This document shows positions 6,214 to 57,298 of a stretch of DNA of 64,000 bases, piece after piece; the stretch's first letter is position 1, and each line of letters begins with the position of its first letter. The position numbers and the translations under genes are program-made. Source of the stretch: Actinomycetota bacterium (GTDB taxonomy: Bacteria; Actinomycetota; Acidimicrobiia; IMCC26256; PALSA-555); contig VGBR01000011.1 of NCBI GenBank assembly GCA_016870355.1, positions 33,140 to 97,139 on the forward strand. The letters run 5' to 3'. Under the pieces are notes generated by a model. It made no database searches and was not told the origin of the DNA. It saw only the letters and a program-made list of their open reading frames with translations.

Positions 6214-7709
6214 GGCACGTCTTCGCGCAGCAGTGCAGCCCACATGATGTGAGCTTCCAACACGTCGGCCACGTCATCGAGGTCTGCGATCGTTCGGGCG
6301 ACGCGTCGGACTCGTGCCGCGCCGCGTCCGGTCATGACCCGGAGCTCCGACTGTGCACGCCAGGCCGCGGCCGCGTCGCCCGACAGTGGGATCAGCCGCT
6401 CGAGCGCGCCGGCGGGGATGTGTCCGTTGTGCCGCCAGGGCGTGCCGGCGAGCCGAGCGGCCTGGCGCGCGACCGCGTTGATCACGCGGCCGCGCACGGA
6501 CTCAGACGTCTCGCCGGCCTGATCGTTGGCTTCGGGCGGGCGGACGGCAAGGCGAAGGTCGAACCGGTCGAGCAATGGTGCCGAGAGCCGGCGGCGATAG
6601 CGCGCCCGTTGGAACTCCGTGCACGAGCAGCCGGGCGGACCGAGCCCGCATGGGCATGGGTTGGTGCAGGCCACGAGCAGGAAGTCGGCTGGGAAGGTGA
6701 GCGTTCCCTGCTGACGGGAGATGCGCACGACCCGTTCCTCGAGCGGCTGACGCAACGCGTCGAGCGCCGATGGCGGGAACTCACCGAGCTCGTCGAGGAA
6801 CAAGATGCCGCGGTGCGCCATCGTCACCTCACCAGGTCGAGCGCGCGCCGCGCCGCCACCCACGAGTGCCGCGACGGATGCCGTGTGGTGCGGGGCGCGC
6901 ACCGGGACTGCGCGCATCAATCCGGCTGGCGCGCAGCCGGCGACGGAGTGAATCCGCGTCGTCTCGAACGCTTCGTCGTCGCGCAGCCTCGGCATGATCG
7001 TGGCCAGTCGCCGAGCGAGCATCGTCTTTCCGGCCCCCGGCGGACCCGAGAGCAACAAGTGGTGATGTCCCCCAGCCGCTACTTCGAGCGCGCGTCGCGC
7101 CCAGGTGAGCCCACGCACGTCGGCCAGATCGAGGGGATCCGCCTCATCATCGGCGAGATCGACGGGTGCCAGCGGTGGTGGTGGGTCCGGCCACGGCGCC
7201 TCGCCCTTGAGGCACGCGCGCAGCTCACCGAGCGTGCGCGCGACGCGCACGTGCAGGTCGGCCGCGAGCATCGCCTCGGAGGCACCGACCTCCGGGACGA
7301 TCACCGTGGTGATGCCCGCGCGCCGCAGCGCGTCGACGAACGCGAGCGTGCCGGGCACGGCGCGCACGGAGCCGTCGAGTCCGAGCTCGCCGACGACGCC
7401 GACTCCGTCGAGTACTCCCGCGGGGAGCTGGCCCTCGCCGAGGAGCAGGCCGAGCGCGACGGCGAGCTCGAACCCGGCGCCGGTCTTGCGCACTCCGCCA
7501 GGGGCCAGGTTGACGGTGATCCGCTGCTGTGGCCACGGCAGCTCTGACGACAGCAATGCGGCGCGCACTCGCTCTCGTGATTCGCGGACCGCGGTGTCGG
7601 GCAGCCCGACGACGTGGTACGCGGGCAGCCCCGGCGACACATGGACCTCGACGGTGACGACCTGCCCTTCGACTCCGAGCAGGGTGGCGCTGACGACCGA
7701 CGCGAGCAC
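6210..7709 (-). CDS. comM: YifB/ComM family Mg-chelatase-like AAA+ ATPase
   Basis: VGLPDTAVRESRERV, GPPGAGKT Walker A, LFLDE, NPCPCG; GGAGG RBS before GTG at 7709. Confidence 0.95.
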   Translation of the reverse strand: MLASVVSATLLGVEGQVVTVEVHVSPGLPAYHVVGLPDTAVRESRERVRAALLSSELPWPQQRITVNLAPGGVRKTGAGFELAVALGLLLGEGQLPAGVLDGVGVVGELGLDGSVRAVPGTLAFVDALRRAGITTVIVPEVGASEAMLAADLHVRVARTLGELRACLKGEAPWPDPPPPLAPVDLADDEADPLDLADVRGLTWARRALEVAAGGHHHLLLSGPPGAGKTMLARRLATIMPRLRDDEAFETTRIHSVAGCAPAGLMRAVPVRAPHHTASVAALVGGGAARARPGEVTMAHRGILFLDELGEFPPSALDALRQPLEERVVRISRQQGTLTFPADFLLVACTNPCPCGLGPPGCSCTEFQRARYRRRLSAPLLDRFDLRLAVRPPEANDQAGETSESVRGRVINAVARQAARLAGTPWRHNGHIPAGALERLIPLSGDAAAAWRAQSELRVMTGRGAARVRRVARTIADLDDVADVLEAHIMWAALLREDVP

Positions 7710-7792
7710 GCTTCGACCTCCGAGCAGGCCCCGATCCGCACGCACGGGGCAGGAACGGCTGGTCGAGTGGCCGCGACCGCAACGGCTTGAGC

Positions 7793-7814
7793 ACCGTACG
7801 GCAGGGGTGTGACA
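7793..7814 (-). promoter_or_regulatory. PafBC/RecA-NDp-type DNA-damage promoter motif upstream of comM-dprA
   Basis: Minus strand TGTCAC-N10-TACGGT matches the TGTC..-N10-TA-NNN-T architecture. Confidence 0.6.
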
Positions 7815-7839
7815 TCGAGCGTGAGCGTTCCAGACTTGT

Positions 7840-8280
7840 CTATTCCAACGGGACTTCCGTCCACGGGATGTGCTCGGCGTCGAAGACTGCCGGAAGCACT
7901 CCACGACTCGCGGCTGGAGAGAGCCACACGGCAGCGTCCAACAGCAACGCGGCAGCTGTCGCCTCCCGGTTCATGAGTCTCAAGTGTGGATGGCGTTGCG
8001 CTACATCGACCATCACGGGCACGAGTGGGCGTGGCTCCGGGAGCACGACGTGCGCGGGCAGCCGGAGCATGGACTGGATAGCGCCCTCTTGAAGCGCCCT
8101 CGGGAACGCGCGGAACGGCCCGGAGAGCTTTCCTCCCGTGCCAGCGACCGCGGCGCGGCATGCACGGAAGTGCCACCACACCGTCGTGTTCAGTGTCGCA
8201 CCACTCGGGAAATCAACTTCGATGTTGAGGACGTGCGCGACGAGCAACCGATCGTCGATGAGAATGCTATTGGTCGGCAA
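7840..8280 (-). CDS. Divergent PIN-like putative toxin
   Basis: N-terminal ILIDD motif, ~146 aa, overlaps the upstream AbrB-like gene. Confidence 0.55.
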   Translation of the reverse strand: MPTNSILIDDRLLVAHVLNIEVDFPSGATLNTTVWWHFRACRAAVAGTGGKLSGPFRAFPRALQEGAIQSMLRLPAHVVLPEPRPLVPVMVDVAQRHPHLRLMNREATAAALLLDAAVWLSPAASRGVLPAVFDAEHIPWTEVPLE

Positions 8281-8527
8281 GATCGGGATCGTCGAGCGCA
8301 GCGACCGCGTCGTCGTAGCCCCCCTCGGTCAAGAGCAGGCGGCGAAGCTCCGCGACCGCAGCGTCCAGTCCTCCCGGGACGATCAACACGGCATCGCCGA
8401 GGTCGATGAACCCGAGCACGCCGCCATCTTCGATGCCCCAGCGATGACGGAGTGCGGCGGGCAACGTGGTTTGGCCACGGTGGGACACCCGGCCGGTCGA
8501 CGTGTGGGTTGCAGCCATGGTGTGCAT
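8267..8527 (-). CDS. AbrB/MazE-like antitoxin
   Basis: RVSHRGQTTLPAALRHRWGI motif, acidic C-terminus. Confidence 0.8.
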   Translation of the reverse strand: MHTMAATHTSTGRVSHRGQTTLPAALRHRWGIEDGGVLGFIDLGDAVLIVPGGLDAAVAELRRLLLTEGGYDDAVAALDDPDLADQ

Positions 8528-8636
8528 TGTATTTCTTTATCTTTACAAGGCAGCGGCGCACCACTGAAAGGGAGTGACCCACGAGCCTCGTGTGGGTGAT
8601 GGGGAACCCCAGCGCAGGTGGCTACCGTTTGTGGCC

Positions 8637-9542
8637 ATGCCCTGGGAAGTCGATGGGTATCTGGCCACGCTGAGCGGCCGGAGCCACCACACCCGCCGTG
8701 CCTATGAGCACGATGTCCGGGAGTTCGTGGCCTGGGCCGAACGGGGCGGCTGTGTTGAGCCGAGGTCTGCTGACCGCCGGTCGCTGCGGCGATACCTCGC
8801 GTACCTGGGCACTCGCGGGTTCGCTCGCCGCTCGGTGTCACGCAAGACCGCGGCCGTGCGGGCGTACCTCCGGTACCTCCACCGTCAGGGTGTGCTTTCG
8901 TCCGACCCTGGACGCGCGCTGCGTGCACCGCGGGGCGACGCCCGGCTTCCTCGCGTCCCCAAGGCCGACGAGATCGGTGCGCTGCTCGACAACGCGAGCG
9001 CGCAGATCGGTCTCACCGATGCCGACCCCTTCGCAGCGGCGCTGGCTCGCCGCGATCTCGCCGTGCTCGAGCTCCTCTACGGCGCGGGCTTGCGCGTCAG
9101 TGAGTGCTGCGGCCTCTCCGTCGCGGATGTTGACCTGAAGGTCGGCCTCGTGACGGTCATCGGCAAAGGTGGACGGATGCGACGCGTCCCGCTCGGTGAG
9201 CCGTCACGCGCCGCGATCCGCGACTGGCTGAAGCACGGCCGACCCGTGCTCGCAACCGAAGACTCGCCGCCGCGCGCGGTGTTCCTGTCGCGACGAGGCG
9301 GGCAGCTCGGTCCACGCGACGCGCACCGCATCGTGGCGGCACAGCCGACGGGTTCACGCGACGTGCTGCACCCGCACGCGCTTCGACACGCGTACGCGAC
9401 CCATCTGCTCGAGGGTGGTGCAGACCTGCGCGCGGTTCAGGAGCTCCTTGGGCACGCCGACCTCGCGACCACGCAGATCTACACACATGTCACTCGCGAC
9501 CGCGTCCGTGCGGTCTACGACGAAAGCCACCCTCGTGCCTGA
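8637..9542 (+). CDS. xerC: Tyrosine recombinase XerC
   Basis: LYGAGLRVSE, GKG, HPHALRH.YATH, LLGH, TQIYTHV; start may be as far upstream as 8574. Confidence 0.9.
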   Translation: MPWEVDGYLATLSGRSHHTRRAYEHDVREFVAWAERGGCVEPRSADRRSLRRYLAYLGTRGFARRSVSRKTAAVRAYLRYLHRQGVLSSDPGRALRAPRGDARLPRVPKADEIGALLDNASAQIGLTDADPFAAALARRDLAVLELLYGAGLRVSECCGLSVADVDLKVGLVTVIGKGGRMRRVPLGEPSRAAIRDWLKHGRPVLATEDSPPRAVFLSRRGGQLGPRDAHRIVAAQPTGSRDVLHPHALRHAYATHLLEGGADLRAVQELLGHADLATTQIYTHVTRDRVRAVYDESHPRA

Positions 9543-10311
9543 CGATCCGGAGCTCACCGCGCTCATCCAGGGTCTCTGGGAGGACTACAAGGGCGGCGGG
9601 ACCACCGAGGCGCGCGAGCGCCTCATCATCCACTACTCACCGCTCGTGAAGTTCGTGGCTGGTCGTGTCGCCGCGGGTCTGCCCCAGAACATCGAGCAGA
9701 CCGACCTCGTCAGCTACGGGATCTTCGGGCTCATCGACGCTATCGACAAGTTCGAACCTGAGCGCGGCTTCAAGTTCGAGACCTACGCGATTGCGCGCAT
9801 CAAGGGCGCGATCATCGATGAGCTGCGCTCCATCGACTGGGTGCCGCGTTCGGTGCGCGCAAAGGCCCGAGCCGTCGAGCGCGCCTACTCGAAGCTCGAG
9901 AACGAGCTCCGGCGCAACCCGCAGGACGGGGAGGTGGCCAAGGAGCTCGGCATGACCGAAGACGAGCTCGGCGCGACCCTGTCGCAGATCTCCTTCACCG
10001 GCCTCGTCGCGCTCGATGACCTGATCGGGGCCGGCAACAGTGAACGGTCGGGATCCACCCTCGGCGAAACGCTCACCGACGGTGCCCACAATCCGGTCGA
10101 GGCGTTCGAAGTCGATGAGATGAAGCACCTGCTCGCTGACCTGATCAACCGCATGCCCGACCGCGAGCGGCTGGTGCTCACCCTCTACTACTACGAGGCA
10201 CTCACGCTCGCGGAGATCGGGCAAGTCCTGGGCGTCACCGAGAGCCGCGTCTGCCAGATCCACACCAAGGCGATCCTCCAACTGCGCGCTCGACTCGCCA
10301 ATCCCGCGTAA
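9535..10311 (+). CDS. whiG: WhiG/FliA family (sigma-28) RNA polymerase sigma factor
   Basis: KFETYA..IKGAIIDELRSIDWVPRSVR; LYYYE.LTL.EIG.VLGVTESRVCQIH. Confidence 0.93.
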   Translation: MPDDPELTALIQGLWEDYKGGGTTEARERLIIHYSPLVKFVAGRVAAGLPQNIEQTDLVSYGIFGLIDAIDKFEPERGFKFETYAIARIKGAIIDELRSIDWVPRSVRAKARAVERAYSKLENELRRNPQDGEVAKELGMTEDELGATLSQISFTGLVALDDLIGAGNSERSGSTLGETLTDGAHNPVEAFEVDEMKHLLADLINRMPDRERLVLTLYYYEALTLAEIGQVLGVTESRVCQIHTKAILQLRARLANPA

Positions 10312-10419
10312 CCGCGCAGGAAAACCGGAGTCTGCTCTTCCCATCGACCGCGCGCGCCGCTACGGTGCTGCGCACTTCCCTTCGGCTTCCCCGCCCGTGT
10401 CCAACCCCGGGGGAAGCCG

Positions 10420-12210
10420 ATGCCACCGCTACGTGCGCAGAAGCGCCGCGCGCCGTGGGTGCTGGTCGTCACGCTCACGGCCCTTGTCGTCAGCACGTTT
10501 CCGGCACCGCCTGCGTTCGCCGCTGACAACTGGTCGCCGCCGGTGCCCGGTGTCGTCGTGCGCGGCTACCGGGAACCACTGGCGCAGTTCGCGCCAGGTC
10601 ACCGCGGCGTCGACCTTGCGGCACCCGCGGGCACCATCGTGCGAGCCGCAAGCGACGGAACGATCACGTTCGCGGGCGACGTCTCCGGCGCGCTTCACGT
10701 CGTCATCGAGCACACCGGCGGAATCCGCACGTCCTACTCGTTCCTTGCTCATGTCGACGTAGAGGCCGGCGACACGGTTCGTCGGGGCGCGGTTGTCGGG
10801 ACCGCGGGCGGCCGCGGGAGTGGTCACGCCACCGGGGTCTTGCACTTCGGCGCCCGATCCGGGAGTCGCTACTTCGACCCGATGCTGCTGTTCGGTCCGA
10901 CCGACCTCACCGAGCTCGTGCGGTTGGCTCCCGCTGATCGGATCACGGCAACCGACGTCGCGCTGCTCCTGCGCGAGTTCGACGACGGCTGCGGTCTTCT
11001 CTGTGACATCGGCAATGCAATTGGCGACAGCACTGATTGGGTGGTCGACCAGGTCGAGGATGCCATCGAGCTCGGGATCGAGGCGCTGCGCACCATTGGC
11101 GAGCTCACGGAAGAGCTCATCGAAGAGATCGAGCAACTCGCCCGCGAGGTGCTCGAGACGCTCATCGAAGCTGCGGCGGACGTCGTCGAAGCGGTCGCGC
11201 AGTTCGCCGAGATGCTCGTCAACGGGGTGGCCGAGTTCGTCGAAGCCATCATCGAAGCCGGCATTCTTCTCTACGAGCAGCTCACGTCGTGTCCGCAACC
11301 GCCACCGAAGGCGCACTCGAAGGGCTCGGGCAATGCCGCCTTCCTCGTTGCCGGCCTGACGAGCTCGATCACGAAGCGGCCTCCCGACAAGCACGGCGAC
11401 GTGTACGACGAGTCCTTCAAGCCGCGCCTGAATCCGCTGGGTTACACGCGCGACGAGGTCGAGCACTTCTCGTACCGCGAAGGGTCGCGTACGTATCGCC
11501 CACAAGACACCGTCACTGATCTCCACGAGCAGGCGGCGTCGATGGGTCGTCAGCTCAAGGAGTGGGCTCGAGAGCATCCCGGCGAGTCCATCGACCTCAT
11601 CGGACACTCACAAGGAGGTGTGGTGATCGATCTCTTCCTGATCGAGCAGTACGCAGGGCACGAAGACGAGTTCCCACCGATCGAGAACATCGTGACGTTC
11701 GGATCCCCTCACGAGGGGACGCCGATCGCTGACTTTGCAGAGAAGGTCGACAATCACCTCTCGCTCGGTATCGCGGCGCGCACGCTTGACCCGTTGGACT
11801 TGATCGGTTCGGATGCGGTCACGCAGATGACTTCTGATTCGTCGACGATTGACGGGATACAGAGTCATGACGACATCACCAACGGAATCCGATTCCTGTC
11901 GATCGCGGGCTCGGAGGATCCCATCGTGCCTTCGAACAGGAGCGACGTACCTGGGGCTACCAAGGTCGTGGTGCCGGTAGGCGTTCCGTTGCTTCCCGAC
12001 GATCACAGTGCCGTGGTCCGCGACGACGACGCGATCAGCGCCGCGCAAGCGCACTTGGAAGGTCGATCGCCCGCTGACTCGTGCGGGCTGCTCGTGGACG
12101 TAGGAGGAGAGTTGTGGTCGGGGCTCGTCGACTGGGCGGCCAAGAAGACCACCACCGTTCCCGGCGACCTTGGCCCAGTCGACGAGTTCGTCAGGGACCA
12201 CGTCCTGTGA
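10420..12210 (+). CDS. Secreted fusion protein: M23 peptidase domain, acidic helical linker, alpha/beta-hydrolase
   Basis: Signal peptide; HRGVD and LHFG (M23); GHSQGG, TFGSPH, EDPIVP and DH (Ser-Asp-His triad). Confidence 0.85.
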   Translation: MPPLRAQKRRAPWVLVVTLTALVVSTFPAPPAFAADNWSPPVPGVVVRGYREPLAQFAPGHRGVDLAAPAGTIVRAASDGTITFAGDVSGALHVVIEHTGGIRTSYSFLAHVDVEAGDTVRRGAVVGTAGGRGSGHATGVLHFGARSGSRYFDPMLLFGPTDLTELVRLAPADRITATDVALLLREFDDGCGLLCDIGNAIGDSTDWVVDQVEDAIELGIEALRTIGELTEELIEEIEQLAREVLETLIEAAADVVEAVAQFAEMLVNGVAEFVEAIIEAGILLYEQLTSCPQPPPKAHSKGSGNAAFLVAGLTSSITKRPPDKHGDVYDESFKPRLNPLGYTRDEVEHFSYREGSRTYRPQDTVTDLHEQAASMGRQLKEWAREHPGESIDLIGHSQGGVVIDLFLIEQYAGHEDEFPPIENIVTFGSPHEGTPIADFAEKVDNHLSLGIAARTLDPLDLIGSDAVTQMTSDSSTIDGIQSHDDITNGIRFLSIAGSEDPIVPSNRSDVPGATKVVVPVGVPLLPDDHSAVVRDDDAISAAQAHLEGRSPADSCGLLVDVGGELWSGLVDWAAKKTTTVPGDLGPVDEFVRDHVL

Positions 12211-19642: not shown

Positions 19643-20865
19643 AGAAGGACCCGCTCGAAGAAGCGTCTGAGAACGTCACTCGCCGCGGCGCGACCTACAT
19701 CCTGTTGCTCGTCGTCATCGGGCTCTTGGCGCTGTTCATCCTGCGGCCAGGGAGCCGCGACGCACTCGCCATCATCCTCGGCATCGCGCTGATGATCTTG
19801 CTGCACGAGGCCGGGCACTTCGTCGCCGCGAAGCTCACGGGCATGAAGGCCACCGAGTTCTTCATCGGCTTCGGGCCGCGGCTCTGGTCGTTCCGCCGCG
19901 GCGAGACCGAGTACGGCGTCAAGGCCATCCTGCTCGGTGGCTACGTGAAGATCATCGGGATGACCAACGTCGAGGAGGTCGACCCGGCCGACGAGCACCG
20001 CACGTATCGGCAGGCATCGCACGGCAAACGACTGATCGTGGTGCTTGCAGGCGTGACGATGAACGTGCTCCTTGCTCTGGTGCTGTTCTTCTCGTTCTAC
20101 GCGGCGGGTGGCGAGATCCCTGATGGCCCCGGCACGCGCGTGCAACAGGTCGTGGACGACAGCGCCGCACAAGCAGCGGGGTTCGACAGGCTTGACCGCA
20201 TCGTCACGATCGATGGCTCGAAGGTGACGAGCTGGGACGACCTCGTGGCGAGCATCGAGGCTCGCGGGGGTGAACCGACCACGTTCGTCATCGTTCGCAA
20301 CGGTGAACGACTGACGATCGATGCAACACCGAAGACGCGCAACGGGAAGGGCTTCCTCGGGATCGCGCCTCTCTACGAGTCACACACCGTCAGCGTGAGT
20401 GGTGCAGTGCCCGAGAGCTTCCGCGCCCTCGGCGACGTGACGTCAGGCACCGTGGGTGGGTTGGTCAACCTGTTCTCACCCGAGGGGCTCTCGGACTACA
20501 GCAAGAACTTCACGTCTGACGCTCCGAAGGCCGGATCGCCCGAGTCGGCGGCGCGTCCCCGTTCTTTGATCGGAATCGTCGACGTCGGCAGCGACATCGT
20601 GAATGGGGACATCAAGAAGCTGCTCTTCCTCTTGGCCGCGATCAGCCTCGTGCTGGCGATCTTCAACACTCTTCCCCTGCTTCCCTTCGATGGTGGCCAC
20701 GCCGCGGTCGTCATCTATGAGTGGGTCGGATCGAAAGTCACACGGCGCGCCGTGAAGGTCGACTACCGCAAGCTCATGCCTTTGACCGCGGTCGTGCTCG
20801 CCCTGTTCCTGACGCTCGGCTTGAGTGCGATGTTCCTCGACATCCGCGAAGCCGTCGGGTCCTGA
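19639..20865 (+). CDS. rseP: RseP/Rip1-like M50 site-2 metalloprotease with PDZ domain
   Basis: HEAGH, LGGYV, FNTLPLLPFDGGH. Confidence 0.93.
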   Translation: MKKDPLEEASENVTRRGATYILLLVVIGLLALFILRPGSRDALAIILGIALMILLHEAGHFVAAKLTGMKATEFFIGFGPRLWSFRRGETEYGVKAILLGGYVKIIGMTNVEEVDPADEHRTYRQASHGKRLIVVLAGVTMNVLLALVLFFSFYAAGGEIPDGPGTRVQQVVDDSAAQAAGFDRLDRIVTIDGSKVTSWDDLVASIEARGGEPTTFVIVRNGERLTIDATPKTRNGKGFLGIAPLYESHTVSVSGAVPESFRALGDVTSGTVGGLVNLFSPEGLSDYSKNFTSDAPKAGSPESAARPRSLIGIVDVGSDIVNGDIKKLLFLLAAISLVLAIFNTLPLLPFDGGHAAVVIYEWVGSKVTRRAVKVDYRKLMPLTAVVLALFLTLGLSAMFLDIREAVGS

Positions 20866-47121: not shown

Positions 47122-48399
47122 ATGGCTGGGTTGGCCGCGCACGCGGCGATTCGACGCACGCGCCTTGATTCGGGTGCGCGGATCGTCACCGAAGCGATGC
47201 CGATGCTGCGGTCGGTCGCAATCGGCTTTTGGGTGGGCACCGGCTCGCGTGACGAGCCCGAGGAGCTCGCCGGGGCGAGCCACTTCCTCGAGCACCTCTT
47301 GTTCAAGGGCACCGACTCGCGCACTGCCGCCGAGATCGCGGACGCCGTCGAGTCGGTCGGTGGCGACATGAACGCGTTCACCACCCAAGAGCTCACCGCG
47401 TTCTACGTGCGCGTGCCCGACGAGTGCTTGGACCTCGCGATCGAGATCCTCTCCGACATCGTCTGGGAGCCGGCGCTGCGTCTCGAGGACGTCGATGCCG
47501 AGCGTCAGGTGATCCTCGAAGAGATCCGCATGCGCGACGACGCGCCCGAAGATCTGGTGCACGACGTGTTCGCGGACGCGATGTTCCCCGGTCACCCGAT
47601 CGGCCGAGAAGTGATCGGCTCCCCCGACACCATCGACGCGATGGGTCCCGACGAGATCAGCGCGTTCCACCAACGGCACTACCACCCGAGCAACGTCGTC
47701 GTAGCGGTTGCGGGCAACCTCGGCCACGACCACGTGGTTGAGCGAGTCGAGCAGGGCATCGGCGGCGCGAACGGGTCACGGCCACCGCGCGACATGTACG
47801 CCGGCGAACCCGCGCCCAGAAGGTTGGCCGTGCTCGAGCGACCAACCGAGCAGGCGCACATCGTCGTGGGCATGCGGTCGCTGGCTCGCGCTGATGAAGA
47901 CCGATACGCGCTCACCGTGCTCAACCAGACGCTCGGCGGCGGCATGTCGTCTCGCCTCTTCCAAGAGGTGCGCGAGCGTCGTGGTCTCGCGTACTCCGTG
48001 TACTCGTTCCGCGCCGCCTTCGAGGAGACCGGGGCCTTCGCCGTGAGCGCCGGAACCTCGCCCGAGCGGCTCCCCGAGCTGCTCAGCGTGATCGATGCCG
48101 AGCTGGAGCGGGTCGTCGCCGACGGTGGCATCTCGGCGCGCGAGATGGATGCGGCCAAGGGTCACCTTCGCGGTTCGCTCGCACTCTCGTTGGAGAGCTC
48201 CGCGAGTCGGATGCACCGGCTCGGTCGCAGCGAGCTGACGATGGGCGAGATCCCGTCACTCGACGAAGTGGTCGCCGAGGTCGACGCCGTCCAGGCAGAC
48301 GACGTCGCGCGAGTGGTCGATCGCGTGCTCGCCACCGATGAGCGCACGCTCGCCGTCGTCGGCCCCGTCGAGGAGCAGGAGCTGCTCGCAAGAGCGTAA
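47122..48399 (+). CDS. M16 family zinc peptidase
   Basis: HFLEH inverted zincin motif, NAFT, SSRLFQEVRERRGLAYSV; follows pnp. Confidence 0.93.
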   Translation: MAGLAAHAAIRRTRLDSGARIVTEAMPMLRSVAIGFWVGTGSRDEPEELAGASHFLEHLLFKGTDSRTAAEIADAVESVGGDMNAFTTQELTAFYVRVPDECLDLAIEILSDIVWEPALRLEDVDAERQVILEEIRMRDDAPEDLVHDVFADAMFPGHPIGREVIGSPDTIDAMGPDEISAFHQRHYHPSNVVVAVAGNLGHDHVVERVEQGIGGANGSRPPRDMYAGEPAPRRLAVLERPTEQAHIVVGMRSLARADEDRYALTVLNQTLGGGMSSRLFQEVRERRGLAYSVYSFRAAFEETGAFAVSAGTSPERLPELLSVIDAELERVVADGGISAREMDAAKGHLRGSLALSLESSASRMHRLGRSELTMGEIPSLDEVVAEVDAVQADDVARVVDRVLATDERTLAVVGPVEEQELLARA

Positions 48400-48468
48400 G
48401 AACGGAGCGCTCGACGCGCTCCTAGTAGGGAGTGACCGATTCGGTTCGCCCCCTACGATCGTGACGGC

Positions 48469-49884
48469 ATGCAGGACGCGGAGATTGCTCAAGCGATCGC
48501 GGCTGGCGACACGGAGGCGTTCGCCGAGCTCTTCGAGCGCTATGGCGCCGCGCTCCACGACTTCTGCGCGTCAGTGCTGCGCAACCGCGACGAAGCGCGA
48601 GACGTGGTCCAGGACACCCTGGTCCTCGGGTGGGAGCGCGCGGCCCAGCTGCGCGACCCGAGCAAGCTCAAGCCGTGGCTCTTCGCGATTGCGCGGCACG
48701 AGGCACTGCGACGGCTGCGTGCGCGCCGACGGTCCGTGCCGCTTCAGGACGTCGAGATCGACCGTCCCGCCCCTGGGTCCGATCCGGTGGACGCCGTGAC
48801 TCGTGAAGACGCGGCCGCGATCGTATGGGCAGCCGCGGCCGGCCTGTCACCGCGCGACCAGGTCCTGCTCGAGCTGCACGTGCGCCAGGGACTGGAGGGC
48901 CAGGAGCTCGCGGACGCGATGGGCACGAACGCCAACCACGCGTATGTGCTCGTCAACCGCTTGCGAGCCAGGGTCGATCGTTCGCTGGGCGCGCTGCTCG
49001 TCGCGCGCCTCGGTCGCGAGGAGTGTGAGGAGCTCCAGCGCGTGCTCGAGGCTTGGGACGGCACGTTCTCGCCGCTCTGGCGCAAGCGCGTCGTCCGTCA
49101 CGTCGACGAATGCGAGATCTGCTCGGAACGGCGAAAGGCGCTGGCGAGCCCCTTCGAGCTGCTGCCGACGCTCGCCGCGGTCATGCTGCCGTCCGACCTG
49201 CGTGACGACGTCTTCGACCGAATCCGCCACATCTCGTCGCACACGCGCATCCCCGGCGATCGGCGAGCGCGCGGGTGGCGCCGTCGTCACGACGGCTTTC
49301 CGCCACCGTTGTACATGCCACCTCGACGTCGGGTGGCGGGAACCGCCGCCGCAGTCGTGGCCATCTTGGCGAGCGGCGGCATCGGGGCCGCGATCACCGC
49401 GGGACCAGGGAGCGACCGCCACGTGAACGTCAGCGACGAACGCCGCAATTCGTCCCCCTCCACGACCCGAGGTCCGCTGGGTGCAGCGCCCACGACGGGC
49501 GGAACGGCGCCGCCGGCTTCGACGACGGGTGCGGCGCCGCCGAGCATGGCGCTGGATGGCAAACCCCCGTCGATCAGCGGGCTCAGTGTGAGCCCAACGT
49601 CGTTCTTCGAATCGCTCGGCACGTGCAACCCTGAGACGGCCACCGTCAGCGCGGCCGTCAGCGATCCGAGCGGCCTCGCGTCGGTGTTGATGCTCTGGTC
49701 TTCGACGGCTGGCAGCGGCTCGAAGCCGATGACTGGGGGCGCGACGCGCTCGGCAACGCTGGGGCCGTTCGCGCAGGCACCATCTGCCATCACGCCGATC
49801 ACGATCACGGTCCGGGCGACGGACGGTGCCGGGAACGTGGCCGAGGCCACCACCGCGGCCGAGGTCCAACAGTGCGTGATCTAG
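48469..49884 (+). CDS. ECF sigma factor fused to zf-HC, a transmembrane helix and an extracellular Ig-like domain
   Basis: Sigma region 2 (DVVQDT, WLFAIAR), region 4, HVDECEIC (HxxxCxxC), hydrophobic helix, S/T/P linker, beta-rich C-domain. Confidence 0.88.
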   Translation: MQDAEIAQAIAAGDTEAFAELFERYGAALHDFCASVLRNRDEARDVVQDTLVLGWERAAQLRDPSKLKPWLFAIARHEALRRLRARRRSVPLQDVEIDRPAPGSDPVDAVTREDAAAIVWAAAAGLSPRDQVLLELHVRQGLEGQELADAMGTNANHAYVLVNRLRARVDRSLGALLVARLGREECEELQRVLEAWDGTFSPLWRKRVVRHVDECEICSERRKALASPFELLPTLAAVMLPSDLRDDVFDRIRHISSHTRIPGDRRARGWRRRHDGFPPPLYMPPRRRVAGTAAAVVAILASGGIGAAITAGPGSDRHVNVSDERRNSSPSTTRGPLGAAPTTGGTAPPASTTGAAPPSMALDGKPPSISGLSVSPTSFFESLGTCNPETATVSAAVSDPSGLASVLMLWSSTAGSGSKPMTGGATRSATLGPFAQAPSAITPITITVRATDGAGNVAEATTAAEVQQCVI

Positions 49885-49992
49885 GTGCCTGAGCAGGCAG
49901 CGCGAAAAGCCTGCAAACTGTAAGAGAGGGCCGGGCTCGCTGCTCTGGTTCCCGAGAGCATCCGGGGCGAACCGGTCTGCGGGAGGTGCGGG

Positions 49993-50757
49993 GTGGTGCG
50001 AGGCGTGCGAGGGGCGATCGCCCTGACCCAGCTGCTCGTGGCAGGCACGATCGTGGCCGGTGGTGCCGGTGCTGGGGTGGCACTCGACCAGACGGGCGTG
50101 TTCGGTGGTGGTGACGAAACCGTCGAGGTCAGCCTCGACGCCGTCTCCGTCTACGACTGCCCTGACGGCGCGGAGAGCGGTGAGGTGCACCGCGGGGACC
50201 GGGTGCTCGCCACCGGGCGCGACGGCAGCGGCGCATGGATCGAGATCCGCGACCCCCGCGACCTTGGTGCGCGCGTCTGGGTCAAGGCCCCGTATCTCGT
50301 GCCCGACGCCGATCTCTCCGGTCTCGACGTGCGTGACTGCGAAGAGGTCGAGGTTGCGCTGCCCACGACCACGACCGCACCGTCCGATGGCGGTGGTGGC
50401 GGTGGTGGCACGGCGGCCGACACGACCGGTCCGACCATTTCCGGCGTGAGCGCAAACCCGAATGAGATCTGGGAGACGTTCCCGTCCCTGTGCGGCGAGA
50501 TGGCGAAGCAGTCGACGATCACCGCGAGCGCGAGCGATCCCGCGGGCATCGCGTCGCTGACCGCATCGTGGGCCTTCGGACCGGTCAACCAGACGAAGAA
50601 TATTCCCGCGCAGTTCGGACCGTTCCCGTACTTGACCGTGCCTGACAACACGCAGCCGACGATCACGATCACGATCACGGCACGGGACACTCATGGCAAC
50701 ACGCGCACCGCCACGACAACCGTCGTCGTTCACAGCGCGGCCCAGTGCTCCATCTGA
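49993..50757 (+). CDS. Secreted or membrane-anchored protein: SH3-like domain plus Ig-like domain
   Basis: Hydrophobic N-terminus; GDRVLATGR...WIEI...VWV (SH3b-like); C-domain resembles that of the upstream sigma. Confidence 0.8.
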   Translation: MVRGVRGAIALTQLLVAGTIVAGGAGAGVALDQTGVFGGGDETVEVSLDAVSVYDCPDGAESGEVHRGDRVLATGRDGSGAWIEIRDPRDLGARVWVKAPYLVPDADLSGLDVRDCEEVEVALPTTTTAPSDGGGGGGGTAADTTGPTISGVSANPNEIWETFPSLCGEMAKQSTITASASDPAGIASLTASWAFGPVNQTKNIPAQFGPFPYLTVPDNTQPTITITITARDTHGNTRTATTTVVVHSAAQCSI

Positions 50758-50761
50758 TCCG

Positions 50762-52486
50762 ATGACGCGCATCAGCTCGATCCTCGCTGCGCTCGGCCTG
50801 CTGGTCGTCTCGATCGTCGGTGGCGCGCTCGTGTCAGGTGGCCTCGCTGGCGACGCGGTGGTCACGCGCGCCCTGCCCGAGCGTGAGCAGGCGATCCCGG
50901 TGATCGGCCCGTCCGACGGCGCGCTCGGCGCGACACCGGCGTCCGCAGACGGCGGTGGCGGCGGGGGAGCGGGCGGCGACGCGAGTGACGACGAGGTGCC
51001 AGTCAGCGACCCGGTCGGCGTCGTCGAGCCCTACGTGCCGGCCGATGACGGGGACCCCTCGACGCTGCGCTTCATCGACCCGTGCGCGGCCGTCGAGGGC
51101 GAGTGCGACGGCATCGGCAGCACTGTGCTCGGCTTCCACGAGGCGCCGCCGTTCGAGATCCTCGGCGTGTCGGGTGGCGGCGATCGCTGCACGGAGCGGG
51201 GCGTTGAAGCACGGGTGATCGGTGATCCCTTTTTGATCCGCTCCACCACGCCAGCTGAGTTCACAGTGACCGCGCGCGATCGAAACGGCGATACGAAGAC
51301 GGTCCGCGTGTCGACCCCACCAAACGAGGTCGACGACTTCACCGCGCGCTACGACGACGATCCGGGCACGCATACAGATCCGTCCTTCTTGGACGAGCGC
51401 GTCAGCACCTGCTTCGGGATCCTGTTCCCCAACCGCTCGACGCAGTGGGACCTCGTCGTCGAGGGACGTACCGGCGATCAGACCGACACCTACGAGTACG
51501 CGTGGGACGTCGTGGCCACCGGTGGCCGACCACCGGTCCGCATCGACGACCCGCGGCCGCCCTACGAGCACCAGCTCCACGTCGTGGTGCCGGCGAAGAG
51601 CGGGAACAGTGGCAAGGTCGTTGTCGACCTGGCGTCGAACTCGGGCGGCGCGACCGGCGATGCCTGTCGTGCGCGGGAGGGGTTGAGCACGTCAGCGGTG
51701 AGCAGCGCGCTGATCCCGGGGCAGCCGGGCTCTCCGACGCGCGCGATCGCGCGCCGGGAGCTCACTGCCCCTGACTACCCCTACGACGAGGTGTACGACC
51801 ATCGCTTCGACCACACGTTCAGCGATTTGGCACCGGGCCATCGCTACGACCTCTGCATCTGGTGGCTCGGGCCGCCCGGCCGTGGGGTCGAGGAGCGGGT
51901 CGTGTACCCGGTCTTCACCCCACAGCGCTACACGGTGTTCTTCCGCGTCGCGCGCGTGGACTTCACGCACGCGCGATCACCCAGCTCGATCGAGATCTCG
52001 ACGTTCGCCGGCGCGTGCCGGTTCAGCCTGCCGCGCGCCGAGGCCGCGCGCCACCACGTCTACGACCCCGCATATGTTCCCACCTCGGCCACCAGTGGCG
52101 AGCAGCCGTGCAACCACAGTCGAAGGCTCGAGCCGCTCCCGGGAAGTTTAATCTCGTTCCCGTCGTTCGATCCTCTCCTGCGCGTCGAGGTCACCCGGGG
52201 CGAGACGACGCTCGCCGACTATCTCCACGCGCCGTTGAGCCCGTGTCCGGTCGGTGGTCGCGCGTGCGATCCCAGTGAGGACTTCACTGAGGACTACGTG
52301 GTGAGCCTCGGCTCCGTCACGACCGGACTCTGCGGCTCGTCGTTCGGTACCTGTGACCCGCCGACGGAGCGAGTCGGCACGATCACGTTCCGCTTGCGCT
52401 TCCGGAGCAGCGGGCACGAAGGCGGCCGCTACTGGGAGATCGGCGAGCCGACCACCTTCGAGGCCCCGGAGGATGAGGAGTCCTAG
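50762..52486 (+). CDS. Secreted or membrane-anchored Cys-containing hypothetical protein
   Basis: N-terminal hydrophobic segment, Gly/Asp linker, many Cys; starts 4 nt after the previous stop. Confidence 0.78.
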   Translation: MTRISSILAALGLLVVSIVGGALVSGGLAGDAVVTRALPEREQAIPVIGPSDGALGATPASADGGGGGGAGGDASDDEVPVSDPVGVVEPYVPADDGDPSTLRFIDPCAAVEGECDGIGSTVLGFHEAPPFEILGVSGGGDRCTERGVEARVIGDPFLIRSTTPAEFTVTARDRNGDTKTVRVSTPPNEVDDFTARYDDDPGTHTDPSFLDERVSTCFGILFPNRSTQWDLVVEGRTGDQTDTYEYAWDVVATGGRPPVRIDDPRPPYEHQLHVVVPAKSGNSGKVVVDLASNSGGATGDACRAREGLSTSAVSSALIPGQPGSPTRAIARRELTAPDYPYDEVYDHRFDHTFSDLAPGHRYDLCIWWLGPPGRGVEERVVYPVFTPQRYTVFFRVARVDFTHARSPSSIEISTFAGACRFSLPRAEAARHHVYDPAYVPTSATSGEQPCNHSRRLEPLPGSLISFPSFDPLLRVEVTRGETTLADYLHAPLSPCPVGGRACDPSEDFTEDYVVSLGSVTTGLCGSSFGTCDPPTERVGTITFRLRFRSSGHEGGRYWEIGEPTTFEAPEDEES

Positions 52487-52595
52487 GTCTGATGAAGCGC
52501 GCGCGACCTCACTTCTCGCTGCCGGCCTGGATCGAAGCTGACTGACACCGAGAAGCAACGGGCGGGCCCACAGGCGACCGCGTACCCTTCCGAGC

Positions 52596-53408
52596 GTGAT
52601 CAGAGTCGGTGTGTTCGGTGCCGGTGGGCGCATGGGCTCCACCGTGTGCAGCGCCGTCGCGGCGGATCCCGAACTGGAGCTCGTTGCCGCGGTCGACCCG
52701 TACCACGAGGGCATCGACCTGACGCAGCTCGGCGTTCCCGACACGGGGTTGACGGTGAACCGAGCGGTCGACACGTTCGCGGAGCAGGGCGTCGATGTTG
52801 CCGTCGACTTCACGGTCCTCGACGCGGCACGCGACAACATCGCGTGGTGCGCTGACCACGGTGTGCACGCGGTCGTCGGCACGACGGGCTTCACCGAAGA
52901 CGAGCTCGATCAGCTGCGCGTGCGCTTTCTGAACGCCGCCGCGAACGCGGTGATCGTGCCCAACTTCGCGATCGGTGCGGTGCTGATGATGCGGTTCGCC
53001 GAGCTGGCCGCGCCGTACTTCGACACCGCCGAGATCATCGAGATGCACCATGACGAGAAGGTGGATGCCCCGTCGGGCACCGCGATGCTCACCGCCCAAC
53101 GCATGGCCCAGGCGTCGAGCAGCTGGGGGAAGGACCCCACCGAGAAGGTCGTGATCGAAGGCGCCCGCGGCGGCGAGGGACCCGGCGGCATCCACATCCA
53201 CTCCGTCCGCATGCGCGGAGCCGTCGCGCACCAAGAGGTGGTGCTCGGCACGACGGGTCAGTCGCTGACGATCCGCCACGACTCCTACGAGCGGACCTCG
53301 TTCATGCCCGGCGTGCTGCTCGCGATCCGCGCGGTCCGCGAGCGCCCCGGCCTCACCATCGGCCTCGCCGCCCTCCTCGGCCTCGAAGGGAAGGTGGGGA
53401 AAGCCTGA
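52596..53408 (+). CDS. dapB: 4-hydroxy-tetrahydrodipicolinate reductase
   Basis: GAGGRMG, VDFT, VVGTTG, EMHH..KVDAPSGTA. Confidence 0.97.
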   Translation: MIRVGVFGAGGRMGSTVCSAVAADPELELVAAVDPYHEGIDLTQLGVPDTGLTVNRAVDTFAEQGVDVAVDFTVLDAARDNIAWCADHGVHAVVGTTGFTEDELDQLRVRFLNAAANAVIVPNFAIGAVLMMRFAELAAPYFDTAEIIEMHHDEKVDAPSGTAMLTAQRMAQASSSWGKDPTEKVVIEGARGGEGPGGIHIHSVRMRGAVAHQEVVLGTTGQSLTIRHDSYERTSFMPGVLLAIRAVRERPGLTIGLAALLGLEGKVGKA

Positions 53409-55704: not shown

Positions 55705-57298
55705 ATGCGGAGGCACGTGCTGACCGCCATCGCCCTGGTCGCGACGGTGGTTTCGCCGGCGCAACGGGCTGGGGGGTTCGGTGCGCGCCGGCGCCCAGCC
55801 GACACCCAAGACCGTCGAGTTCGGATGTGGCGCGAGCCCTCAGTGGACCGCACCCCTCGGCGTTCACGCGGCGACGGTCGATGCCTACGGCGCAGAGGGT
55901 GGCTCTGCCCTCTGGACGACCAAGCTCCAGCTGTCCGAGAACCTCCCGGGCCCGATCACGGAGACGAGGGTCAGCCCGGGCGGGCTCGGGGGACGAACGC
56001 TGGCGAAGGTTCCGATCGACCCCGGCGCGCTCTACCACGTGTTCGCCGGCTGTAGCGGCCAACCCAACGCTGCGCTCTGTTACGAGAAACCAACCTATTC
56101 CACCTGGGGCGGTGCCCCGGGAGGTGTCGCCGGGGGGAGCACCGGTGCCGGCGGTGGCGGGGCTTCCTACATGACCAAAGCGGGCAGCAACAAGATCCTG
56201 GCCATCGCCGGGGGCGGCGGCGGGGGCGCGGCCAACAGTGGGGGCAAGAGTGTGTCGAGCGCCGGCGCCGGCGGTGCTGGCGGCGGCGCCTTCCAGCCAG
56301 GGAAGGACGGCAAGTCCTTCGGCATCGGTGGGCAGGGCGGCGGCGGCGGTGGGCTCGTCGAGTGGGGCAAGGGCGGCGGCGCGATCTGGCCGTACCCGTG
56401 GAACATCTCAGATCCGGCCGTAGGGTCCAACGGGACGTTCTTCTACGGCGGCTCGGGGGGCGGCTCCATCACGTGCTCGCCCACCGTGGGGATGGCCGGC
56501 GGTGGGGGCGGTGGTGGCGGCGCAATCGGTGGTGGCGGCGGGGGTGGGCACGTGGGCAGCGGGCACCTGGACGGCTTCGTCAAGCAGTACAGCCTTGCGT
56601 ATGCCGGCGGTGGTGGTGGTGGCTCTGGGTTCAGTGCCGACTTCGATGCGCATGGTGAGACCGGCGTGCGCAAGGGCAACGGGCTGGTGAAGATCACGTA
56701 CACCGTCGATCCTCACGCGTGGATCGAGCTGTTCAACGTCACGTCGATCCCGGTGCAAGGGAAGTTCCAGTTCGCGCTCTTCAAGTGCGTGGACCAGAAG
56801 GAACGATCACGCGCCGCGGTCGTCGACAGCGGACCGCCAGGGCGGTCCTGTACGCGGGTCTCTGACGCCGCGCTGAGCGACGACGACGGCAAGGTGTTCA
56901 CCGGTCTGAGGGTAGGGACGTACGTGCTTCGCCAGACCGGCGCGCCGGATGGCTGGACGCTCGGCGACATTCGATGTGTGGACGTGCCGGGCGGCGCGGA
57001 ACCCTCCGGTGAGATCGAGGTGGGAAGCCCGGTGGTCGCAGACGGTGAGATCGTGCTGAAGTTCCGTCGGCGACAGCACGTCCGCTGCACCTTTGCCAAC
57101 CGCAGCGCCTTCGCCGGGCTGCCTGGGCCTGCGCAGACCATCCCATCCACCACCACGACGAGGCCGAGGGCGACGACTCCGCCGCCGACTGCGCCGGTGA
57201 CGACCCCGCCGACGGAGCCGCCGACGGACCCGGCGACGGACCCTCCGACCACCCCGACCACACCACCGTGCTTCCCCGGTACGCCCGGCTGTCCCTGA
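55705..57298 (+). CDS. Secreted glycine-rich surface protein with Ig/SpaA-like domain and PT tail; signal peptide out of frame at a G6 tract
   Basis: MRRHVLTAIALVATVV (frame of 55705) versus mature ORF 55781-57298; GGGGG runs, GNGLVKITY, GWTLGDIRC..VRCTFAN. Confidence 0.7.

Follow-up and report, generated by a model that had tools for sequence, protein, structure and literature searches.

We consider it somewhat more probable than the alternatives together (probability roughly 0.55) that three adjacent genes in the window, the whole 64,000-nucleotide stretch of DNA that was analysed, make up a single cassette for envelope sensing, centred on a one-component ECF sigma factor, in which genes 2 and 3 would be sensing-side partners of the sigma factor and not its outputs. 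The three genes lie on the same strand with gaps of 108 nt and 4 nt. The features on which this reading draws are as follows.

19771..20757, + strand: Peptidase_M50 gene for a site-2 protease of the RseP/Rip1 type, candidate releasing enzyme (PF02163, 141 bits)
48454..48459, + strand: TACGAT, putative -10 element of a leaderless or near-leaderless transcript, 9 nt ahead of the sigma ATG (read from the sequence)
48469..49884, + strand: gene 1, one-component membrane-tethered ECF sigma factor, 471 aa (ORF, family profiles, AF2)
48469..49011, + strand: sigma2 (residues 1-88), flexible linker and sigma4 (residues 112-181) of gene 1 (Pfam/TIGR, AF2, Foldseek)
49012..49236, + strand: helical ZAS-like region of gene 1, residues 182-256, with C186/H211/C215/C218 (alignment, AF2)
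49321..49395, + strand: single TM helix of gene 1, residues 285-309, after an Arg-rich stretch (AF2 helix; hydrophobic, after PPRRR)
49396..49554, + strand: disordered Ala/Thr/Pro/Gly-rich extracytoplasmic linker of gene 1, residues 310-362 (pLDDT < 50 for residues 311-360)
49555..49881, + strand: Cys-bracketed PKD/Ig-like C-domain of gene 1, residues 363-471, with C386 and C469 (AF2; homology to the gene 2 domain)
49885..49992, + strand: spacer between genes 1 and 2, 108 nt (terminator, fold and motif checks)
49993..50757, + strand: gene 2, 254 aa, TM anchor or signal, SH3b-like and PKD-like domains (ORF, AF2)
50128-50352, + strand: SH3b-like domain of gene 2, residues 46-120 (AF2 pLDDT 94-96)
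50410-50754, + strand: PKD-like domain of gene 2, residues 140-254, after a Thr/Gly linker (AF2 pLDDT 88-98)
50762..52486, + strand: gene 3, 574 aa, TM-anchored, Gly/acidic linker, Cys-rich ectodomain (ORF, homologues)

The original prediction described gene 1 as a sigma factor followed by a zinc motif, a transmembrane helix, a linker and an extracellular domain, and this order holds. The protein matches Sigma70_r2 (E 4e-12, 46.1 bits, cut-off 24) and TIGR02937 (68.6 bits, cut-off 42.9), its region 4 scores under the Pfam cut-off (Sigma70_r4_2, 17 bits vs 25.7), and it has the sigma2 and sigma4 domains only, as is usual for ECF (group 4) sigma-70 factors. In the AF2 model the sigma core has a pLDDT mostly of 94-98, and both of its domains superpose on SigW and CnrH (TMt 0.79-0.81). 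The top Foldseek matches are sigma chains taken from sigma/anti-sigma complexes; the sigma part aligns with SigW-RsiW 5wuq_A at TMt 0.79 (rmsd 4.2 Å over 168 columns) and with CnrH-CnrY 4cxf_A at TMt 0.81, and RNA polymerase holoenzyme sigmas compare with the model at rmsd 26-27 Å. As modelled, gene 1 thus takes the closed form of anti-sigma-bound SigW and CnrH. The adjoining region has the H-x3-C-x2-C zinc motif and upstream ligand of a ZAS domain, arranged as C-x24-H-x3-C-x2-C, with all four residues (C186, H211, C215 and C218) invariant across 26 family members and five helices (pLDDT 83-95) within residues 187-256. Beyond the membrane helix and linker, the C-domain is a beta-sandwich with a pLDDT of 79-97. 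Sigma core, ZAS-like region and C-domain are combined in 19 proteins from 18 genomes. Named relatives are from Actinomycetes, Marmoricola and Ilumatobacteraceae MAGs. A second fused-sigma paralogue is found on another contig of the same genome, where it has no neighbours of the gene 2 or gene 3 type.

This architecture is that of a known one-component ECF type, like ECF48, ECF52 and ECF53. Such proteins, with fused anti-sigma and outer domains, have been predicted from genomes. The passages on these three groups in PMC8999054 and PMC5826349 describe a sigma factor with a zinc finger, a TM helix and an extracellular extension for which proteolytic activation is expected, and give SCO4117 of Streptomyces coelicolor as the best understood member. 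In the passages on ECF52, to which SCO4117 belongs, the protein consists of an ECF core, zinc finger, TM helix, long extracytoplasmic linker and C-terminal binding domain, the group is confined to Actinobacteria and release by proteolysis is proposed (PMC5826349). Gene 1 shares with ECF52 the sigma, zinc-finger and TM arrangement, the long extracytoplasmic extension and the actinobacterial host. Unlike ECF52, it has a PKD/Ig-like C-domain in place of an NPCBM-type carbohydrate-binding module (smart00776-type), gives no Pfam zf-HC2 match (residues 175-260 up to E 10, the whole protein up to E 1), and belongs to a cassette of three genes in which a partner carries the outer domain again. As in ECF48, ECF53 and IutY (ECF243, Pseudomonas putida), its sigma part is fused C-terminally to an anti-sigma-like membrane-spanning extension. 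According to the passages in PMC8999054, Prc and RseP release IutY, and the same behaviour is expected of ECF48/52/53. The FecR-type extension and TonB receptor, on the other hand, are particular to IutY, and the passages on ECF48, ECF53 and IutY describe no partner that shares the sensor domain.

Two-protein systems offer further parallels. Gene 1 resembles SigW-RsiW of Bacillus subtilis in that its sigma part has its best structural match in that anti-sigma-bound closed form, and in having a zinc-motif anti-sigma with one TM helix, but SigW and RsiW are separate proteins and the outer part of RsiW is not PKD-like. In that system the anti-sigma is removed by two-step proteolysis. The closest precedent for a sensor that shares a module with another surface protein is SigI-RsgI of Clostridium thermocellum, where the anti-sigma carries an extracellular module of a type also present in the proteins that it helps to regulate. 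SigI is not an ECF factor, SigI and RsgI are separate, and the RsgI modules bind carbohydrate and sense polysaccharide; gene 2 looks instead like a co-sensor.

The domain said to be common to the ends of genes 1 and 2 is a genuine shared feature (E about 1e-7, both Cys kept), although the QCxI tail attributed to it is not conserved. The two C-domains match in BLASTP at E 4e-7 with 32% identity over 71 aa. As a control for chance similarity, six-frame searches of the organism's own genome recovered the same match at E 1.4e-7 and 7e-8 (38-39% over 107 aa), and found the domain only in gene 1, gene 2 and the second sigma paralogue, plus one weak match at E 0.0017. The organism is a lake actinobacterium with a genome of 2.8 Mb. 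An alignment of 26 domains shows the C-terminal Cys in every sequence and the N-terminal Cys in nearly all, and a tail of 0-9 varied residues comes after the final Cys. In gene 2, residues 142-252 adopt a PKD-type beta-sandwich fold, aligning in VIA-align with 2c4x_A (Z 9.3, rmsd 2.1 Å over 90 aa) and with the PKD domains of ColH (Z 8.8) and AAVR (Z 8.7), and PKD domains match at a Foldseek TMt of 0.60-0.66. No Pfam PKD or Big family passes its cut-off (Big_9 E 0.015, 16.6 bits vs 23.6; PKD_4 E 0.12; Big_7 E 0.027), and relatives of the domain give weak DUF7743, Big_7, Big_13 and CBM_56 matches. An objection foreseen from the start was that the domain might be a generic repeat. Worldwide it is indeed common, with 14,162 representative proteins at E<=0.001, but in its own genome it has just the three carriers, and the genes are co-conserved.

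Upstream of this domain, gene 2 begins at a GTG with GGGAGG 7 nt before it, and its N-terminus is a TM anchor or signal that leaves only some 9 residues in the cytoplasm. Two Cys pairs of the protein, C56/C116 and C167/C252, are conserved. Its SH3b-like domain compares with the phage endolysin SH3 4krt_B at Z 7.8 (rmsd 1.8 Å over 58 aa) and with muramidase SH3-like domains at Z 7.4, values that may reflect a common arrangement since they fall below Z 8. Pfam gives no SH3 profile match in the window's gene 2 protein, and a weak SH3_3 match in two homologues (19-20 bits, cut-off 27). Atlas neighbours of gene 2 bear SH3_3, which we take as a lead only.

At 25 loci encoding SH3+PKD proteins, a stand-alone ECF sigma (Pfam r2+r4) lies directly upstream in nine and a fused sigma is present in three; gene 3 adjoins in 14. 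The nine sigma-linked relatives have an extra cytoplasmic N-terminus of 29-54 aa, shortest in L089 and L096 at about 30 aa, and seven of them carry a D-(D/E)-x-(L/I)-R motif there, L089 and L096 being the two that differ. Because these relatives directly follow an ECF sigma and have a cytoplasmic N-terminus, their placement and topology match those of an anti-sigma or sensor and not those of an output, and this position suggests that they may act as anti-sigma factors. The related pairs from Acidimicrobiia have the same ectodomain as gene 2 and often gene 3 downstream. They differ from the window's cassette in that their sigma belongs to another family (nearest TIGR02983, below cut-off) and is not fused, and in the extra N-terminal segment, which is wholly absent from the window's gene 2 protein. 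The window's genome holds no close homologue of their stand-alone sigma (best 31% identity). Gene 2 therefore resembles an anti-sigma ectodomain minus its cytoplasmic part, and from sequence comparison it is more likely to be a co-sensor derived from such an ectodomain.

As originally predicted, gene 2 is followed after 4 nt by a third Cys-rich, TM-anchored protein. Its ATG at 50762, 4 nt past the TGA of gene 2, is backed by homologues, and a further possible ATG lies upstream at 50693. Seven Cys are invariant in the 13 homologues of gene 3, none of which has a Pfam match, and the family has no PDB sequence match. The expectation that the three genes are co-conserved was borne out. In two genomes of the same genus, pnp, the M16 peptidase gene and dapB adjoin one another in flanks that are 83-87% identical, and the 4.1-kb trio, which in the window lies between the last two of these genes, is missing. 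The trio recurs in two other genera in permuted order, with gene 2, gene 3 and sigma in G005 and sigma, gene 3 and gene 2 in G008. Gene comparison thus indicates a cassette that close relatives have acquired or lost whole. The association of the sigma with genes 2 and 3 is facultative: 13 of the 18 fused-sigma genomes have no gene 2 homologue, genes 2 and 3 occur together in genomes without any fused sigma (G130, G122 and others), and in two of the five genomes with both fused sigma and gene 2 the two are on different contigs (G231, G451).

A search for a promoter shared by genes 1 and 2 had also been proposed; upstream of 48469 and 49993 we found no common motif beyond shuffled controls. Nor did the regions upstream of gene 2 orthologues or of each cassette's first gene yield an ECF-type or other motif beyond such controls. 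The TACGAT before gene 1 has counterparts of the form TAnnnT in 10 of 12 sigma genes of its family, at 6-10 nt upstream of the start codon ATG, and likewise before dapB (TACCCT, 52583-52588), and is best read as a candidate housekeeping-type, leaderless -10 element. The 108-nt spacer shows no terminator-like site, an RNA fold z-score of -0.07 and no motif in common with orthologous spacers.

We envisage that the sigma2-sigma4 core of gene 1, fused to its own ZAS-like anti-sigma helices, TM helix, linker and PKD-like domain, would at rest be kept at the membrane under inhibition in cis. Gene 2, with its SH3b-like domain of the wall-binding type and its PKD-like domain, and the Cys-rich gene 3 would be extracytoplasmic sensing partners, gene 2 being an anti-sigma ectodomain that probably lost its cytoplasmic part in the window's genome. 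A cell-wall event read by the SH3b and PKD ectodomains might open the outer part of the sigma to a site-1 protease, after which an M50 (RseP-type) protease could make an intramembrane cut that releases the sigma. A more specific version, doubtful though possible, is an extracytoplasmic sensor divided between proteins: gene 2, as a "headless" anti-sigma paralogue, would pair with the sigma through the matching PKD-like domains of the two, the SH3b-like domain would read the state of the wall, gene 3 would be a third subunit, and loss of the outer complex would open the sigma to proteolytic release. If so, a one-component ECF sigma would be controlled from the outside by a partner imitating its sensor domain, an arrangement that would have arisen by splitting and re-use of an ancestral sigma/anti-sigma pair.

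In the original prediction gene 2 was a target of the sigma. On this account, which we consider unlikely, genes 2 and 3 are the sigma's regulon and the PKD-like domain senses their assembly or titration by like-with-like contact, giving feedback. ECF sigmas commonly control neighbouring genes, and the co-orientation of the genes, their short gaps without an intervening terminator-like site, their joint gain and loss and the reality of the shared domain all agree with such control. Autoregulation of SCO4117, in the passages on it, likewise supports ECF control of a sigma's own locus (PMC5826349). Gene 2 as a target is nevertheless a weak reading when set against the housekeeping-type TAnnnT just before the sigma ATG, the lack of a shared motif beyond shuffled controls upstream of gene 2 orthologues or cassette first genes, the gene 2-gene 3 pairs in genomes without a fused sigma, and the relatives of gene 2 that occupy an anti-sigma position beside another ECF sigma family, at 9/25 loci.

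It is also unlikely that shared ancestry is the whole explanation, with the PKD-like module copied between neighbours or simply locally available, no contact or signalling between the proteins, and an adjacency that reflects a mobile cassette or an envelope theme. Sharing could be simple domain shuffling because the domain type, present in as many as 58 copies in one protein, is among the most frequent Ig-like repeats bracketed by Cys. Most fused sigmas lack a gene 2 partner, and sigma and partner domains show no co-variation: the C-domain tree, whose deep nodes lack resolution, does not group a sigma with its neighbour from the same genome, and C-domain identity is 36-41% within a genome, no higher than the 29-45% across genomes. 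In G032, moreover, the convergent neighbour of the sigma has the same PKD-like domain on an unrelated 632-aa frame. However, the trio stays together despite three gene orders and is acquired or lost whole, and the repeated linkage of gene 2 relatives to ECF sigmas of two families (12/25 loci) is hard to explain without a signalling role for the gene 2 family. A last alternative, in which the fusion is a membrane protein of anti-sigma-like character and its sigma part, decayed or repurposed, has ceased to act as a transcription factor, can appeal to the low region 4 score but is very improbable, given a sigma core kept in 18 genomes (sigcore HMM E 1e-14 to 1e-83), a confident fold in which both domains match solved ECF sigmas, and an intact frame with a coding-type GC3 of 0.84.

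The envelope-sensing cassette, as we favour it, bears on the ligands of one-component ECF outer domains and on how their signals cross the membrane, for which three single-pass proteins would be a compact and testable case: a small disulfide-bracketed domain is common to two of them, and close relatives differ in having all three or none. One ectodomain family joins the fused sigma to the separate sigma and SH3b/PKD protein, and may thus exemplify the splitting, fusion and re-partnering of sigma and anti-sigma factors. Two unannotated families, the PKD-like Cys-bracketed module and gene 3, are common in freshwater Acidimicrobiia.

The RseP-type protease suggested as the releasing enzyme does have a gene in the genome, the M50 gene at 19771-20757 (G000:C11:52910-53896). 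Such a gene is present in 14/14 control genomes; the protease is not specific to the sigma cassette and is a candidate releaser only. Another contig carries a second M50 gene, a weaker one.

Three co-oriented open reading frames lie between the M16 peptidase gene, which ends at 48399, and dapB, which starts at 52596, and they form a real and coherent feature. The trio and the element ahead of it are laid out as follows:

48454-48459: TACGAT, the TAnnnT element of gene 1, ahead of the sigma ATG
48469-49884, forward strand: gene 1, membrane-tethered ECF sigma factor, 471 aa
49993-50757, forward strand: gene 2, SH3b-like plus PKD-like protein, 254 aa
50762-52486, forward strand: gene 3, Cys-rich ectoprotein, with a homologue-supported ATG at 50762, 4 nt past the gene 2 TGA as had been predicted

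For gene 1, the Sigma70_r2 match has E 4e-12, and the score against the ECF superfamily model TIGR02937 lies above cut-off. The AlphaFold model of gene 1 (mean pLDDT 81) resolves into these parts:

residues 1-88: sigma2, followed by a floppy linker
residues 112-181: sigma4
residues 187-256: five confident helices of the ZAS-like region (pLDDT 83-95)
residues 285-309: transmembrane helix, with an Arg-rich stretch in front
residues 311-360: disordered linker
residues 368-467: C-terminal beta-sandwich, modeled confidently

Four residues, C186, H211, C215, and C218, are invariant in an alignment of 26 gene 1 family members and make up a zinc-type motif, C-x24-H-x3-C-x2-C; the ZAS-like region did not match the Pfam zf-HC2 profile even at E 10. 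The nearest Foldseek matches to the sigma part are sigma chains from sigma/anti-sigma complexes (SigW-RsiW, TMt 0.79; CnrH-CnrY, TMt 0.81), whereas ECF sigmas of RNA polymerase holoenzymes fit the model with an rmsd of 26-27 A. Because the fit favors anti-sigma-bound over holoenzyme sigmas, the modeled form is the closed, or sequestered, one, as would be expected if the helices after sigma4 were a fused anti-sigma domain.

This architecture is that of the one-component ECF48/52/53 sigmas of Actinobacteria, which, in published accounts, combine a sigma factor with a zinc finger, a transmembrane segment, and an extracellular extension, and for which activation by proteolysis is expected (PMC5826349, PMC8999054, PMC10766802). 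Compared with those accounts, gene 1 differs in its outer module, a Cys-bracketed PKD-like domain rather than a carbohydrate-binding module, and in having a cassette partner that repeats this module. Within the literature collection searched, the matches listed gave no account of a PKD-type extension on ECF sigmas, and no paper joined an anti-sigma factor with SH3 and peptidoglycan. The RseP-type protease proposed in the original prediction to release the sigma factor would be available, since an M50 site-2 protease gene lies within the window at 19771-20757, though such genes are universal and this one is not specific to the cassette.

The proposal that gene 1 shares its outer domain with the next secreted protein is well borne out. 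BLASTP detects homology between genes 1 and 2 over the C-terminal ~110 residues (E 4e-7), and six-frame searches of their own genome (2.8 Mb, 96% complete) with the two C-domains recovered the relationship at E 1.4e-7 and 7e-8, with 38-39% identity over 107 residues. The same searches double as a chance control: besides one weak match (E 0.0017), the only carriers of the domain in this genome are genes 1 and 2 themselves and, on a different contig, a second paralogue of the sigma. Both bracketing Cys are conserved over 26 aligned C-domains and the last is invariant; the QCxI tail is not kept. The second paralogue, of sigma/ZAS-like/transmembrane/PKD-like layout, also ends in the conserved Cys (contig 5, locus L050, about 7800-9205, forward strand); it adjoins unrelated metabolic genes and has an orthologue in the same-genus genome G073.

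Outside this genome, the domain is abundant. A profile built from the 26 C-domains matches 14,162 representative proteins when the cut-off is E<=0.001 and still 3,181 at E<=1e-10; these include many giant proteins in which the module is repeated up to 58 times in tandem. In the five array proteins that we read (P0103, P0151, P0159, P0184, and P0192), the copies are flanked by the same two Cys. Pfam gives at most weak DUF7743, Big_7, Big_13, or CBM_56 matches on array proteins; together with the number of profile matches, this identifies the Cys-bracketed module as a widespread, unannotated Ig-like repeat. Proteins carrying such arrays (P0068-P0217) reach about 7,300 aa, and every copy begins with a P-x-I-type strand and ends at a Cys. 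By eye, the N-terminal parts of P0103 and P0192 look FecR-like, with no profile match in support. The objection that the domain is a generic repeat in genes that are not co-conserved is therefore half right: the domain is common globally, but it is rare in its own genome and the genes are co-conserved.

Evidence for co-conservation comes first from the same genus, where G073 and G118 lack the 4.1-kb trio: their pnp, M16 peptidase gene, and dapB directly follow one another, and the flanks are 83-87% identical, which indicates that the three genes were gained or lost together. In the order-level set of genomes, all three are adjacent again, arranged 2-3-1 in G005 and 1-3-2 in G008. Aligned with the corresponding loci of G073 and G118 (L109 and L110), window positions 48400-52595 present the cassette as an indel in a locus, rpsO-pnp-M16 peptidase-dapB, that is conserved in other respects; in this comparison the edges of the cassette showed neither repeats nor mobile-element genes.

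The gene 2 model (mean pLDDT 80) has only about 9 residues ahead of an N-terminal hydrophobic anchor, followed by two confident domains, each with a conserved Cys pair. Residues 46-115 resemble the SH3-like cell-wall-binding domains of lysins (Z 7.8, rmsd 1.8 A over 58 aa), and SH3_3 matches, sub-threshold, occur in two homologues. Residues 142-252 are PKD/Ig-like, with Z scores of 9.3 and 8.8 against, respectively, the PKD part of 2c4x_A and a PKD domain from a collagenase; Foldseek matches to PKD domains have TMt 0.60-0.66. Gene 3 encodes a membrane-anchored, Cys-rich protein with a Gly/acidic linker. It evolves rapidly: identities within a set of 13 syntenic homologues are 21-27%, although seven Cys are invariant. 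Pfam and PDB sequence searches with these homologues gave zero matches, a word-based homologue search returned only gene 3 itself, and the Atlas offered no usable match and a poor model. Most members of the homologue set (A6, which includes window 50762-52486) retain a short A-L-P-E...P-V-I-x-P stretch between the membrane anchor and the low-complexity linker, which, going by its sequence, might serve for processing or docking.

A gene 2 profile found matches in 25/201 genomes at the order level, seven with full-length gene 2, and in 51/401 at the class level. We mapped 25 loci, drawn from 19 genomes, each encoding an SH3+PKD protein; six further genomes with partial, SH3-only matches were left out. 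The SH3+PKD gene has gene 3 next to it in 14 of these loci and the fused sigma next to it in three. In nine (L080, L081, L084, L086, L087, L089, L091, L093, and L096), a stand-alone ECF sigma with Pfam r2 and r4 regions lies immediately upstream, often overlapping, and neither sigma type was found in the remaining 13, two of which end at a contig end. A first metagenome scan found no related loci; a second yielded seven short loci with two more gene 2 plus gene 3 pairs and no sigma. The nearest NCBIfam model to the stand-alone sigmas is TIGR02983, below cut-off, and the genome carrying the window has no close relative of them (best match 31% identity, E 6e-11).

All nine gene 2 relatives that follow a stand-alone sigma carry an extra cytoplasmic N-terminus of 29-54 aa, whereas gene 2 of the window and other unlinked copies do not. 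A D-(D/E)-x-(L/I)-R motif is common to seven of the nine; the shortest two (L089 and L096, about 30 aa) have a different N-terminus. One database gene call begins past this segment, while NCBI- and JGI-called homologues include it. No Pfam or NCBIfam model matches these sigma-linked SH3b/PKD membrane proteins, which are candidates for a new type of anti-sigma factor.

In 12 of the 25 loci, members of the gene 2 family accompany ECF sigmas, which belong to two different families, and in nine of these they have the anti-sigma position and a cytoplasmic extension. For this reason we favor, with a probability of about 0.55, a reading in which gene 2 would descend from an anti-sigma ectodomain and partner the sigma on the sensing side, rather than being its output. 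The original prediction had instead cast gene 2 as the target of gene 1, which would sense assembly or titration of its own surface product. The shared outer domain on which that idea was built is real, but relatives of gene 2 hold the anti-sigma position in nine loci and no upstream motif is shared beyond the level of shuffles, and we consider it unlikely that gene 2 is the output. It seems similarly improbable that the common PKD-like domain reflects shared ancestry only. In a C-domain tree (26 rows, 119 columns), sigma and partner domains are intermixed with no within-genome pairing, and identity is 36-41% within genomes versus 29-45% across them; because the deep nodes are unresolved, the tree argues neither for nor against sigma-partner coevolution. 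The cassette, in which gene 2 may act on the sensor side, is a compact experimental handle on envelope sensing by fused ECF sigmas, and it also informs how sigma/anti-sigma modules are re-partnered.

The combination of sigma core, ZAS-like region, and C-domain recurs in 19 proteins from 18 genomes (a count that excludes the unpublished genome G119), in some with a BACON_2 domain between, and named relatives come from Actinomycetes, Marmoricola, and Ilumatobacteraceae MAGs. Thirteen of the 18 genomes lack a gene 2 homologue; in the five that have both, the genes are adjacent in three and unlinked in G231 and G451. A second kind of domain sharing between a sigma and its neighbor occurs in G032 (L054), where a fused sigma (6799-8694, forward strand) and a convergent 632-aa frame (8704-10524, reverse strand) lie tail to tail, 10 nt apart, with the same terminal PKD-like domain and otherwise unrelated sequences.

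A shared promoter ahead of 48469 and 49993 did not emerge: a bipartite-motif count over six gene 2 and seven "first gene" upstream regions found a pair common to at most 2-3 sequences, against 2-4 in shuffles. Two sigma upstream regions seemed at first to resemble each other in "GAAC-N19-TAsT", a likeness that lacked support and was discarded. Consensus scanning of 48200-52700, not tuned to Actinobacteria, returned no E. coli-type promoters and no intrinsic terminators, and the 108-nt spacer between genes 1 and 2 shows no more folding than shuffled sequence does (z -0.07). The sequencing runs listed for the region were 13 of DNA, from lake-water metagenomes, and none of RNA. A TAnnnT element ends 6-10 nt ahead of the ATG in 10/12 fused-sigma family genes, five of the ten being from one genus and the pattern having been picked after inspection; the base composition, with A and T at about 0.155 each, gives an estimated chance rate of about 2% per gene. 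A leaderless, housekeeping-type promoter arrangement is usual in Actinobacteria, and the gene 1 layout is, as judged from sequence, of this type and not an ECF-type autoregulated promoter. The sequences directly ahead of the sigma ATG and the dapB GTG are alike, with TAnnnT and then CGTGA. dapB itself has TACCCT 7 nt ahead of its GTG start (window 52583-52596) and no Shine-Dalgarno sequence, as in G073, and is thus probably leaderless. Further along the window, a 505-aa open reading frame (55781-57298, forward strand), containing long stretches of Gly and ending in a Pro/Thr-rich tail, apparently encodes a secreted glycine-rich repeat protein.
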